DNA from: an uncultured bacterium
Lineage (GTDB): Bacteria; Babelota; Babeliae; Babelales; Babelaceae
DNA length: 64,000 nt
Reading direction: 5' to 3'
Assembly: GCA_963722385.1 (NCBI GenBank)
Contig: CAVRKK010000002.1
Span: 480,001 to 544,000 of the forward strand
Program-made: the position numbers
Part shown: in pieces, positions 27,601 through 30,600 of the stretch
Layout of the letters: the number at the start of each line of letters is the position of its first letter
Numbering within the stretch: the first letter of the stretch is position 1

Positions 27601-30600
27601 TTGCTCAGCGAAGTCTTTATTACGGTTGCAGCTTATCACATCATACAGATTTGTCAAAACGACCGCTCTTTTAGGGCGACCAAGCCTACGCCCTTTTAGG
27701 CGACAAATCCAGCCTGCCAAAAACAACCTCTTCTGTATTGATTACAGTCCAATTACTCCACGTTCGGCAAACCCGGCGATCTGTCTCAGTATATCTGGGC
27801 GCAATTAACTTCCTGAGAATGCGGCCTCTTGTGCGTCAGGTGCTAAGTTCAAACCGTGCAAATGTCAATGCCAAATGGAGGCTGGGAGCGTTGCACAACC
27901 CCTGTACGATTATCTGCCATTTTCTCCAAAACCTACCCCTGCCGTAATTCTTGAAAAAGCTCGCAAACCGTGGGAGTATGGCACCCCTCAGCGTCATACT
28001 CCCACCCGCATATTTATTCCATGCTACTTCCAGAAAGTCAGCTTCCAGAACAGTTCAGAACTCCAAAGAATATTGAACAAAACTCTTATGTCGCTGAGGT
28101 GAAAAGGAGCAATACGCCCCTCAGGGGCTGGCAAGTAACAGATTCGCACATCGTCCGCGATGACCTTAGCTCCTTTTAACATATACGGATAGATCATCTT
28201 GCTCCAAAACGCATCCTTCAACATTTTTGCGCCTTCTTTGCTGCAAATCCCCGCGCTCGTCAGCCTTACCATTTGGTATACTATATTGGTTACCACCAAT
28301 CTCAAAAGAGCATATTTACTACGTGATAGTCTCGCTCCTATATCATTTACCAATGATTGGAATAGTGTCTCTGCCACGATATCAGCGCTTATTTGCTTAC
28401 TCGCAAGTGTTTTCTTGCCAGTGGCGCCTTCCTTGCTCGCCGCGTTCTGCTGTTTCTTGTCTTTCTCTCGAGCAGAATTCTCTTGGCTTAGCGTGTCCCC
28501 AAAGACCGAGGAACTACCGCTATTCATTACTTGAGCATGCTCATTGGGTACTAGCCCACAATCACCATAGGTTTCGGATTCTGCAAATCCCTTTTCCTTC
28601 TCTTCGGTGAACATCCCATTTCTTCCTAAGATGAAACAATCATCAGCAGGTTTCTTGACTGCGGCTGGAATTTCATTGGGGCTCACACTATTTATTATTC
28701 GCGCATGCTCCTTGCGCAACTCTTGCGCTGATATCTCGGTGTTATTACGAACGGGGAGGTCTCTCGCACGATTAACGAGGTTATCAACCAACCAAGCGCC
28801 ACAATCAGCATACCAAGCTTGTTGTTGTTGCGTATGCAACAACCAAGCGCCACAATCAGCAAAAGCTGGTTGGTGCGTATGCAGCAAGCGGCTCGTAATC
28901 TGTATTCCTTGAATGCAGGCAACATCAGCGATTATAGCGTCTATATCCTTGAGCGTTGTATAGAGTTCATCATCGAGCAATGCCTTGAGATCCGTATCTT
29001 CATCAGGCACCCTCCAGGAATCTAGGTACTCAACAACATACCCACCATCGTCCCCACGGCGAATAACAAGCCCTATCCAATAGTAGCCTGTTGGTCTATT
29101 CCCATAATCGACTATTTCTCGTGTTTTGTTAACAGGAATTACGGTAGGAACAGCAGCAGTAAATGCCCATATTAACTGGTCGACAAAAGTGTTTCTAGCT
29201 TGTTCTTGCATGCTTCCTTGAATTAAGGGGCTTGCAGCAGCCAACACTTGCGCCTGAAATTCACCGTCGCTTTCTTCCAAGTAATAGCGCAACAAACGGT
29301 CAATGTCATAATCTTCATAAGAATACTCAGCATCAGTAAGATCACGGATTTGGGATGTGGATATCAAAGAAGAGTCGTCTGTTGCTTGCACTCCTTGGGG
29401 CAAGTTCCCACCATTATTCGCTATGACATCGCCGGCAGGTGTTTTTGTGGCGACTGTAACTTCATTAGGCTCTCCCTTATTCTCTTCGCTTTTTATTTGC
29501 CCCGAAGAACTACCGTTATTCATTACTTGAGCGTGCTCATTACGTAACTTTTGCCCTGATGTCTCGGTGTTATTGCGTACGGGGCGGTTGCGAGCACGGT
29601 TAACGAGGTTATCAACCAACCAAACCCCACAATCAACATCCCCTGCTTGTTGGCGCGTATGCAACACTCTACTTGTAATCTGTATTCCTCGGGCATGTGC
29701 AAAATCAGCGATTATCGCGTCTATATCCTTGTGTGCCGCATAATGTCCATCATCAAGTAATTCCTTGAGATCCATATCTTTATCGGGTGCAACCGAGGAA
29801 TCTAAGTACTCAACAACATACCCACCATCGTCCCCACGGCGAATAACAAGCCCTATCCAATGGATGCCTCCTCGTGTTCCGCTATTCCCATAACCACCAA
29901 CACTTGCTCGTGTTATATTAACAGGAATTACGGTAACATCAGCTGTAAATGCCCATGTTAACTGGTCGGCAAAAGTTTCTTTCGCTCCCTCTTGCATGCT
30001 TCCTTGAATTAAGGGGCTCGCAGCAGCCAACACTTGCGCCTGAAATTCACCGTCGCCTGCTTCCAAGTAATAGCGCAACAAACGGTCAATTTCGTTATCT
30101 TCATAAGAGTACTCAGCATCAGTAAGATCACGGGTTTGGGATATGAAAGAAGAGGCTCCTCCCGTGCGCTGCTCAATGGTGTTTTTGATTTCCTCTGGAG
30201 CTTTTTCCTGTTCTTTATCATCTTTCTCCATAGCACGGAGTGCCCCCGATGATACAAGCACTATACCGCACAAAATGGATGCAAAAATCAGTTTTCTTTT
30301 CACGAAATGTAGCCCTTTCTTAAATCACTTTAGTAATAATTATATAATTAAAAACAATAACGCAATTTAAAGAAAAGTCTATATTTTTACAAAATTTCTA
30401 TATAAAACGATTTCCCCAAAAGATACGGGGCGATGTATCAGCTACGTGTAGCCTATAGCGAAATTCTTTAAGTGATGCACGAATATGGCATTATAGCTTT
30501 GTGCTGAGATCAAAATGCTCGGCATAGTGAGCATGGCCTAATGCATTACGCTATACCTAGCTCTAGCCTTCACTGAACTTTTGTTTACATCTCTTGTGCT

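Follow-up and report, generated by a model that had tools for sequence, protein, structure and literature searches.

The window, a 64,000-nucleotide stretch of DNA, comes from an uncultured member of the Babelales, a little-studied bacterium from a group that parasitizes microbial eukaryotes. Its minus strand carries a gene (P0001, also g00780) that starts with GTG and encodes a 759-residue protein with two CE-clan domains in tandem. The features of the locus are as follows.

28024..30303, minus strand: P0001 gene, an open reading frame; a second assembly encodes the identical 759-residue protein but for two substitutions
30232..30303, minus strand: signal-like segment of Sec type, residues 1–24, before AME; basic start and hydrophobic core
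29515..30141, minus strand: domain 1 (about residues 55–263), predicted CE domain of OtDUB/RickCE type with full triad
29860..29862, minus strand: His148, at the OtDUB His76 column by alignment, with Trp149 next (triad numbering from excerpts of PMC7214410)
29800..29802, minus strand: Asp168, at the OtDUB Asp96 column by alignment (numbering from the same excerpts of PMC7214410)
29629..29652, minus strand: Gln218-Gln219 to Cys225; Cys225 is at the OtDUB Cys135 column by alignment, and Gln219 at Cys −6
29356..29514, minus strand: low-complexity linker of about 53 residues
28684..29355, minus strand: domain 2 (about residues 317–540), predicted CE domain with disabled active site; Trp409, Asp428, Gln495 and Cys501 kept
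29080..29085, minus strand: Tyr407-Tyr408, Tyr408 aligning at the catalytic His position; codon polymorphism in short-read contigs
28789..28884, minus strand: internal tandem duplication in domain 2, in frame, net 16 residues, with two Gln-x5-Cys motifs (C484 and C501)
28507..28563, minus strand: third, relic copy covering the C-terminal part of the domain (DCG ... NEHAQVMN, residues 581–599), from DNA repeat family D4 and the sequence
28027..28500, minus strand: orphan C-terminal region, no family found
30454..30555, no strand: 102-bp element with terminal inverted repeats (TATAGCG); the genome contains five such elements

Gene structure, export and assembly support

In an earlier note on this DNA, the 759-residue reading frame was given a signal-like segment at its N-terminus and a pair of CE-clan protease domains. 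This was reproduced, and all of its motifs are present (GIH148WIG, YLD168S, DC225GVW and GYY408WIG), together with YLD428S. The duplication itself stands, but its units run from about 55 to 263 and 317 to 540 rather than 118–298 and 380–563, and the N- and C-terminal halves are 63% identical over 269 columns (E 2e-106), in place of 57% (E 6e-61). It is also visible in the DNA, where ungapped blocks that are 91%, 85% and 82% identical replace the former figure of 77%. The internal duplication of domain 2, the third-copy relic and two further CE copies in the genome are points absent from that note. The C-terminal region of P0001 has no Pfam match, no counterpart in the 260 other genomes of the phylum, and no usable match in the ESM Atlas. 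The 102-bp TATAGCG element lies 151 bp upstream of the start codon, as a neighbor without an established role in the system.

The N-terminus is signal-like by hydropathy, with a basic start and a hydrophobic core, and by its likeness to other N-termini; an ankyrin protein of the same genome has a similar one. A motif of the AME/GME/SME type occurs near the N-terminus in 17 of 1123 ORFs, compared with 3 in a control window. Genes of the secretin, T2SSE and T2SSF families are present in the genome; components of type IV pili fall into the same three families. In a cultured relative, 44% of proteins have signal peptides (excerpts of PMC6561590). P0001 remains a candidate for the secreted, host-directed effector that the earlier note proposed.

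It is extremely improbable that the tandem structure or the Tyr arose by assembly or sequencing error. The genome is in two contigs, protein collections hold two frameshifted fragments of the gene (P0005 and P0010), and the short-read evidence is piecewise, no single listed contig covering the whole gene. Against an error, the copies have the same residue at 153 of 208 aligned codons and differ at 55, and the second assembly departs at only two residues. Short-read contigs from four runs in two studies cover and match both domains and the internal duplication, with no joint that skips a copy; a contig of run X3 spans the internal duplication unchanged. The comparison left aside runs X5–X8, whose shares were small.

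Family placement of domain 1

The Pfam Peptidase_C48 match at residues 114–260 was reproduced (E 5.2e-7; 30.2 bits, cutoff 20.7), but it does not prove SUMO specificity, because the C48 model spans the whole CE clan. RickCE_cat (PF22179) outscores it on P0001 (E 2.6e-13; 50.6 bits, cutoff 27; two stretches). The earlier Ulp1/SENP assignment gives way to a nearer relationship with OtDUB and RickCE: the OtDUB profile matches with an E of 1.5e-25, compared with 0.25 for SENP1, and the fold of a paralogue scores Z 18 compared with 13.9. The latter values come from the modelled CE domain of P0002, which is 44% identical. It aligns with RickCE at Z 18.4 (rmsd 2.5, 171 residues), with OtDUB at Z 17.9 (rmsd 3.1, 170 residues) and with Ulp1 at Z 13.9 (rmsd 3.2, 175 residues). 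The model has the CE (adenain) fold; read across from this 44%-identical relative, P0001 itself may have it too.

The intact His-Asp-Cys set claimed for copy 1 was confirmed, in that H148, D168 and C225 align with H76, D96 and C135 of OtDUB, whose structure is solved. Domain 1 agrees with the family consensus at all 31 conserved columns. A Trp follows the His position in both domains (W149 and W409), and a Gln lies six residues ahead of the Cys (Q219 and Q495); in domain 1 this Gln presumably has an oxyanion role. The di-acidic E16/D17 site of OtDUB corresponds to D69-N70-E71 in domain 1 and D331-Y332-D333 in domain 2, with one exact acidic match only. Pfam gave no RickCE_N match in P0001, and no counterpart of the OtDUB C-terminal VR-1/UBD was detected, the P0001–OtDUB match stopping near residue 185. 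The VR-1/UBD forms part of the S1 site of OtDUB.

By sequence, the P0001 domains belong to the OtDUB/RickCE type of deubiquitinase domain and not to the Ulp1 SUMO proteases. OtDUB and RickCE, the two nearest enzymes, are demonstrated deubiquitinases (PMC7214410 and PMC4961225, both as excerpted), and ubiquitin is the typical target of bacterial CE effectors (excerpts of PMC13720258). Domain 1 might instead be a CE enzyme with another target or none: a deNEDDylase, a deSUMOylase, an acetyltransferase, or inactive like LegCE. The clan spans all these activities (excerpts of PMC4961225 and PMC13720258), and LegCE and Lem17 are given in the latter as CE domains without DUB activity. Structural alignments of the paralogue's CE domain to OtDUB show only about 20–22% identity, and the variable regions that set specificity differ. 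We nevertheless consider such a departure distinctly unlikely. The Trp after the His is read as counter to an acetyltransferase (excerpts of PMC7214410), and the YopJ-family Acetyltransf_14 is not among the six Pfam families that match P0001 at E up to 1. Sequence and fold rankings (the latter from the paralogue model) place OtDUB/RickCE well above SENP, NEDP1, NopD and AvrA, and members of the parent family can carry an OTU domain in place of the CE domain.

Lesions and constraint in domain 2

The earlier note had read copy 2 as probably inactivated by one change. The His-to-Tyr replacement was borne out, with Tyr408 in the His column and D428 and C501 kept; the single lesion was not, because several are present in the active site. 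These are the Tyr for His, three further changes just before the Cys, and the 16-residue internal duplication, which yields two DCGAW motifs (C484 and C501) that both keep the six-residue Gln-to-Cys spacing. The conserved Gly-Asp ahead of the Cys has become bulky residues. Domain 2 keeps 28 of the 31 conserved columns and is, judged from its residues, a family-derived pseudo-domain that lacks the His-Asp-Cys triad. Its profile shortfall is 23.3 bits, of which 21.5 come from five active-site positions; the other 50 differences between the domains split 23 to 27 in family-profile fit. Outside the active site, domain 2 fits the family as well as domain 1 does. A sign-flip test over all 55 differences was not significant (p 0.30).

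The tandem was also considered as an intermediate in circular permutation, following the duplication-deletion model (excerpts of PMC12501173). A CE-to-papain permutation would have to combine the copy 1 Cys with the copy 2 His, and the idea was rejected because that His is the residue lost.

Domain 2 could be a kept pseudo-protease or a dying duplicate. If the latter, domain 1 would be a working deubiquitinase and domain 2 a redundant copy whose His was lost not long ago and whose decay is under way; we regard this as possible but somewhat unlikely. Domain 2 would then have stayed in frame only by chance, through conversion off domain 1, or for the sake of an indispensable C-terminal tail. Loss of the His took one transition (CAT to TAT), and the identical His-to-Tyr change is found in a plainly decayed CE fragment of the same genome (contig C2:836219-836623). 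One codon of Tyr407-Tyr408 is absent in contigs of runs X1 and X2, X4 having the window allele, so the site has an in-frame indel polymorphism among near-identical strains. The listed variants within the gene are confined to domain 2 and the tail; domain 1 has none. Synonymous divergence between the copies is patchy, with differences at 8 of 86 up to position 170 and at 21 of 63 beyond it (permutation p 0.003), and the internal duplication and the third-copy relic also favor decay.

Seen together, four features are in keeping with instability and decay of the locus: the codon polymorphism where the His was lost, the duplication inside domain 2, the remnant of a third copy, and the decayed Tyr paralogue.

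Against decay, there are at least four separate active-site lesions, while the other 50 differences show no loss of fit, and neutrality since the duplication is rejected. In the 3' half of the domain pair, which diverged longer ago (dS 0.70–0.86), domain 2 has kept 12 of 14 conserved columns; neutral drift since duplication would retain about 5 to 9 of those 14 (P 0.0001–0.047). Pairwise dN/dS between the domains is 0.43 (95% 0.28–0.67). The constraint on domain 2 could be left over from an earlier, active period, or could reflect gene conversion by domain 1. A parallel pattern of Tyr plus an aromatic residue in P0018 also argues against decay. That protein likewise has Tyr at the His position with the Cys kept, and its change is separate in origin, a single clade with domain 2 being rejected (p-AU 0.015). 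An aromatic at the Gly221 position occurs in both Cys-keeping Tyr domains (domain 2 and P0018) and in none of 27 His domains, a pattern noticed post hoc. We prefer a kept pseudo-protease, with decay as a close rival.

It is very unlikely that domain 2 is alive with changed chemistry, either with another general base, for which His475 or His477 in the inserted segment might serve, or as a covalent trap. Cys501, Gln495, Asp428 and Trp409 are kept, the Gln-to-Cys spacing is preserved in both duplicated motifs, and P0018 also combines Cys with Tyr. P0018 has no such insertion, however, and the bulky residues in place of Gly-Asp speak against catalysis.

Relatives, proposed role and known systems

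The family is not single-copy in this genome: beside the decayed fragment there is an intact paralogue, P0002 (981 residues), in which an ART-like domain precedes an intact CE domain. The P0002-type family also occurs in Gammaproteobacteria, including Legionellaceae, with the ART-like domain paired with CE or OTU; the nearest relatives of P0001 are these larger, effector-like proteins. A search of this genome for OTU domains gave no match, but carries no weight, as it also missed its controls. In that domain R318, E533 and E535 are invariant in 11 of 11 aligned sequences; a wider alignment has E-x-E in 22 of 22 and R-G in 21 of 22 (one sequence is truncated). The S-T-S position reads A-T-G in P0002 and S-T-S or S-T-G in several relatives. 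The full-length model of P0002 was poor in this part, which was therefore refolded alone (pLDDT 89.9). Its top 11 fold matches comprise ten named ART toxins or domains and one ADP-ribose complex; the best (Z 6.2, rmsd 2.9, 113 aligned) lies within the tool's middling range. The best Foldseek E was 0.22, and the ESM Atlas gave no usable match for the region. The ART-like part of P0002 is a putative R-S-E (cholera/pertussis-like) ADP-ribosyltransferase domain and may have the ART fold; the strand 1 Arg and the E-x-E motif are present.

Absence of the P0001 family elsewhere held among the 260 other genomes of the phylum, none of which matched the domain 1 query or exceeded the PF22179 cutoff. Its supposed uniqueness is qualified by P0004, a full-length relative of the paralogue (48% identical) whose signal peptide is similar in style; this protein hints at carriers in the order beyond the representative set. 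A word-indexed search with domain 1 over proteins of 119–380 residues scored none of 312 candidates, and a plasmid collection gave no match. Weak matches in other Babelales, four to PF22179 and one to A2, were rejected, since four of the five have Cys before His (papain order) and the remaining one has no motif; P0013, an ankyrin-repeat protein, was a false match. Rickettsiales, Chlamydiae, Legionella and enterobacteria are familiar sources of CE-clan deubiquitinases. The literature searched, which left most subscription papers and the supplements with large DUB surveys outside its scope, gave no description of one in Dependentiae, of the ART-like+DUB family, or of the tandem architecture.

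Our leading explanation, held tentatively and a little short of probable, is that P0001 is a deubiquitinase that is secreted and acts on the host, and that its inactive second domain has been retained. It would be exported by Sec and then by a secretin-type or vesicle route. Domain 1 would strip ubiquitin, and perhaps NEDD8, off host proteins, the bacterial surface or the surface of the vacuole. Domain 2, which would keep its fold without cleavage, may bind ubiquitin at a second site and so keep the enzyme on chains, as the S2 site and UBD do in OtDUB. The CE module may derive from the ART-like+CE effector family, probably via Legionellales-type bacteria that share a protist host; it would have gained a signal peptide of the host lineage, come to lie downstream of rdgB by insertion and then been duplicated, with later exchange keeping the 5' parts of the copies alike. 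An insertion is supported by genome G008, in which rdgB abuts the P-type ATPase gene directly. G+C differs between the P0001 gene and the paralogue gene (0.46 against 0.37), and a tree test neither rejected nor supported descent of the module from the in-genome paralogue (p-AU 0.24).

A broader proposal, which we consider rather unlikely as a whole, is that His-to-Tyr plus a loop-plugging aromatic is a repeated route from CE deubiquitinases to ubiquitin-binding pseudo-enzymes, with the P0001 copy as a chain holder. The parents would be undescribed ART + CE/OTU ubiquitin editors, moved between Legionellales and Dependentiae and re-addressed from their original export route to Sec.

P0001 offers a concrete, testable candidate for a ubiquitin-directed effector in Dependentiae, and its natural pair of predicted active and inactive domains, 74% alike, is useful for studying the origin of pseudo-deubiquitinases. 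The ART-like+DUB family may point to a ubiquitin-related ADP-ribosyltransferase that Pfam does not cover, which makes it a starting point for finding effectors in Legionellales.

Among known systems, SidE proteins (SdeA etc.) combine a DUB domain of the CE clan with the ability to ADP-ribosylate ubiquitin, which CteC also modifies in this way (excerpts of PMC13720258). P0002 resembles SidE in having ART-like and CE domains in one protein, but its ART-like domain comes before the CE domain. No phosphodiesterase domain was detected in P0002 (other parts of the full-length model are of low confidence), and no SidE or CteC sequence match was found. In the structure search with P0002, SidE appeared only through the SdeA DUB domain (Z 10.2); the top matches of the ART-like fold were the TreX, pertussis-like and TccC3 ARTs (Z 5–6). 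Ulp1/SENP (Peptidase_C48) shares clan and fold with P0001 but ranks lower in sequence and, by the paralogue model, in fold. RickCE (Rickettsia bellii; PDB 5ham; PF22179) is the best Pfam match of P0001 and the best fold match of the paralogue's CE domain; it has one catalytic domain plus RickCE_N, whereas P0001 has two CE domains and no RickCE_N.

The best sequence match of P0001 is OtDUB (OTT_1962, Orientia tsutsugamushi; PDB 6ups, 6upu, 8efx). Both share the His-Asp-Cys order, the helix motif of the N-terminal constant region, a His-to-Asp spacing of 20, the Trp after the His and, as far as the paralogue indicates, the CE fold. OtDUB has 1369 residues, with one CE domain followed by the helical VR-1/UBD; P0001 differs in having a signal-like N-terminus, a second CE domain in which Tyr replaces the His, and an orphan tail. 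An accessory ubiquitin-binding unit after the catalytic domain is demonstrated in OtDUB and proposed for P0001. LotA (Lem21) of Legionella pneumophila is an effector with tandem deubiquitinase domains (excerpts of PMC13720258 and PMC12501173). It belongs to the OTU class and both its domains are active, with different specificities, whereas P0001 is of the CE class with one copy disabled.

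Gene architecture and predicted activity of domain 1

The open reading frame at 28024-30303 (minus strand) encodes 759 residues and contains all the motifs listed in the earlier note. The tandem repeat described there stands as two copies, but their boundaries (118-298 and 380-563) become ~55-263 for domain 1 and 317-540 for domain 2; the halves of the protein are 63% identical across 269 columns (E = 2e-106). Residues 581-599 are the remnant of a third copy, which indicates that the locus was duplicated more than once. Assembly error as the source of the tandem was excluded, because a second assembly has the same 759-residue protein (two substitutions) and short-read contigs (four runs, two studies) match both domains. 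Among the short-read contigs listed, none joins across a skipped copy and none covers the entire gene; one reads through the domain 2 internal duplication with zero differences. The three listed substitution variants within the gene (window 28120-28121, 28157, and 28406; E728A, A716V, and L633P) come from low-depth contigs and all alter the tail; among these listed variants, domain 1 has none.

The Pfam match to Peptidase_C48 was reproduced (E = 5.2e-7), and with it the assignment to the CE clan. The narrower placement with Ulp1/SENP was not upheld: RickCE_cat outscores Peptidase_C48 (E = 2.6e-13, two stretches of the protein), and a 13-row profile search retrieved OtDUB at 1.5e-25 and RickCE at 1.2e-14, compared with 0.25 for SENP1. 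The closest solved sequences to domain 1 are OtDUB (E = 8.4e-8) and RickCE, both reported as demonstrated deubiquitinases (DUBs) (PMC4961225). The OtDUB triad is described as His76, Asp96, and Cys135, together with Trp77 (PMC7214410), and these residues align with H148, D168, C225, and W149 of domain 1; the alignment therefore answers the earlier worry that the triad rested solely on motif position. The structural comparison was made with a model of the CE domain of the in-genome paralogue P0002 (44% identical), standing in for the window protein. It matched RickCE (Z = 18.4, rmsd 2.5, 171 aligned) and OtDUB (Z = 17.9, rmsd 3.1, 170 aligned) better than Ulp1 (Z = 13.9). All 31 conserved columns of the family consensus are matched by domain 1. 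As a caution, LegCE and Lem17 are reported to carry CE domains that lack DUB activity (PMC13720258). Judged by sequence, domain 1 is a member of the OtDUB/RickCE group and is predicted to work alike. The whole protein is an orthologue of neither, and no counterpart of OtDUB VR-1/UBD was detected in its 759 residues.

Active-site lesions and constraint in domain 2

Tyr408 occupies the His column of domain 2, as had been proposed. The Gly-Asp-Val that directly precedes the Cys is replaced by Trp-Tyr-Ala. The domain also contains an internal duplication, in frame and adding a net 16 residues, which creates two Gln-x5-Cys motifs, with C484 and C501. W409, D428, Q495, and C501 are retained. One of the two Tyr codons (407-408) is missing in contigs from sequencing runs X1 and X2, while X4 has both, which argues that the dead site tolerates a change in length.

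Against a family profile from which both window domains were left out, domain 2 scores 23.3 bits below domain 1, and 21.5 of these bits come from five active-site neighbors that we chose. The remaining 50 differences split 23 to 27, and a sign-flip test over all 55 was not significant (p = 0.30). Pairwise dN/dS between the domains is 0.43 (0.28-0.67); 18 changes were polarized to domain 1 and 18 to domain 2, with 19 unclear. The synonymous differences are unevenly spread, with 8 among the 86 codons up to position 170 and 21 among the 63 beyond it (permutation p = 0.003), which suggests an older duplication followed by later exchange in the 5' part of the copies. In the 3' part, 12 of the 14 conserved columns survive in domain 2, exceeding what neutral drift since duplication would leave (P = 0.0001 to 0.047 for 0.43 to 0.2 changes per site). 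This is compatible with a retained pseudo-domain and with a domain active until lately, and does not separate them. Further observations, the length change at the dead site and the comparison of Tyr domains below, fall on either side of this question.

Among 30 tabulated CE domains (omitting the false match P0013, the fragments P0010 and P0026, and P0007, a near copy of P0002), 27 have His and three have Tyr: domain 2, a decayed fragment in the same genome, and P0018. Grouping P0018 and domain 2 as one clade was rejected (p-AU 0.015; quick tree, 26 rows). P0018 is itself an ART-like+CE protein in which the His changed to Tyr independently and an aromatic residue precedes the retained Cys. An aromatic at the Gly221 position occurs in both Cys-keeping Tyr domains versus 0 of 27 His domains (Fisher p = 0.0025; a post hoc comparison of two events only).

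Origin of the gene and its probable parent family

The absence of the family from other genomes of the phylum was reproduced, both with a domain 1 query (0 of 260) and with PF22179 above cut-off (0 of 260). Five weak matches in other Dependentiae genomes were rejected as CE carriers, being papain-order proteins or noise. Proteins at L021, L022, L023, and L033 (genomes G023, G241, G149, and G045) are cysteine-protease-like, their Cys-Gly preceding the His and Asp in papain order; most have signal-like starts, and they could be additional deubiquitinase-like effectors in Dependentiae. The CE gene is an insertion next to rdgB, because in genome G008 a P-type ATPase gene directly follows rdgB with no gene between; in G009, of the same genus, unrelated genes follow. 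A histidine-phosphatase gene (window 26749-27531, minus strand, signal-like start) is likewise missing there in G008 and may have been gained along with the CE gene or close to it. A 102-bp element at window 30454-30555, with TATAGCG inverted ends and five genome copies 97-100% alike, looks like a TA-targeting MITE; some copies adjoin genes for secreted repeat proteins. Units of the SVAFSP type recur in many proteins of the genome, several of which have signal-like starts; by eye, the units resemble beta-propeller repeats.

Window 5995-6924, 42185-44757, 57101-57703, and 61940-64000; also loci L001 and L002: SVAFSP-type repeat proteins

The same genome (contig C2) holds two further CE copies.

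C2:836219-836623 (L002:7220-7624), minus strand: decayed CE fragment, 134 aa, near transposase-like genes
C2:1114810-1117755 (L001:7811-10756), minus strand: paralogue P0002, 981 aa, signal-like start, intact C-terminal CE domain

In the fragment, His has become Tyr, Cys has become Ser, and the Asp and Gln-Gln are gone. A search of 1.84 billion representative proteins gave 27 matches, headed by 870-1120-aa proteins built like P0002 once a piece of the CE gene and the false match P0013, an ankyrin-repeat protein, are set aside. The six loci of the P0002-like family found in named genomes are all gammaproteobacterial (two Legionella or Legionellaceae), and one has a CE domain. In CE trees the window domains are sisters, placed among P0002-type fusion proteins; the tree test neither establishes nor rejects their descent from P0002 (p-AU 0.24), and G+C differs between the two genes. 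The patchy distribution is most simply explained by transfer from Legionellales-type bacteria, but the tree is unrooted and most family members lack a taxon.

Residues 301-680 of P0002 match no Pfam family. They contain Y-R-G and E-x-E motifs, invariant in the family (R318, E533-x-E535), which we take to be the R-S-E signature. Modeled alone (pLDDT 89.9), the region gave ADP-ribosyltransferases as top structural matches, all in the tool's middling range: TreX (Z = 6.2, rmsd 2.9, 113 aligned), then pertussis toxin S1, PltA, TccC3, LT, Scabin, and CARDS (Z = 5.0-5.8). Foldseek returned no match to it below E = 0.001. A family-profile search collected 28 proteins, 12 with a CE domain and 4 with an OTU domain by Pfam; the CE count is biased upward because the profile contains the CE part, and the OTU pairing is independent of that. 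ART-like+OTU fusions include L009:3492-7571 (plus strand), P0040, P0051, P0052, and P0037 (OTU-like motif by eye only), some in Thermoanaerobaculia- and Polyangiaceae-named records. That the ART-like domain has been joined repeatedly to DUBs of two unrelated classes suggests that it may have a role connected with ubiquitin, like SidE and CteC. A distant stand-alone ART-like domain occurs in six other Babelales genomes, outside the clade of P0002 (22-31% identity to it versus 33-60% for other family members). These proteins (L027-L032; G220, G229, G161, G118, G119, and G168; 6 of 260 other Dependentiae genomes) form a separate clade; they are ~410-560 aa long, begin with a signal-like segment, and carry RGIHF, STS-like, and ExE motifs.

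Export and comparison with known systems

Residues 1-24 resemble a Sec signal, ending ahead of an AME-type motif; such a motif is found close to the N-terminus in 17 of 1123 ORFs in the genome versus 3 in a control window. A cultured Dependentiae member is reported to have signal peptides on 44% of its proteins (PMC6561590). The genome has two matches each to secretin, T2SSE-family, and T2SSF-family genes, families common to type IV pili too. At C2:774048-783335 (L044:7049-16336, minus strand), two large secretin genes (~1000 aa) flank assembly-type genes. We infer delivery of the protein into the host cytosol.

The literature searched, mostly at abstract level, yielded neither a CE-clan DUB from Dependentiae nor a tandem that pairs an active CE domain with a pseudo-domain, and no family of the P0002 type that joins an ART to a CE or OTU domain. 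CE domains are well documented in varied modular proteins of intracellular bacteria (PMC6133264). The weight of the CE pseudo-domain is limited because it is known from one species only, and the ART-like+CE/OTU parent family is the stronger lead. LotA also has tandem DUB domains, both reported as active (PMC12501173), whereas in the window protein the active site of domain 2 is disabled.
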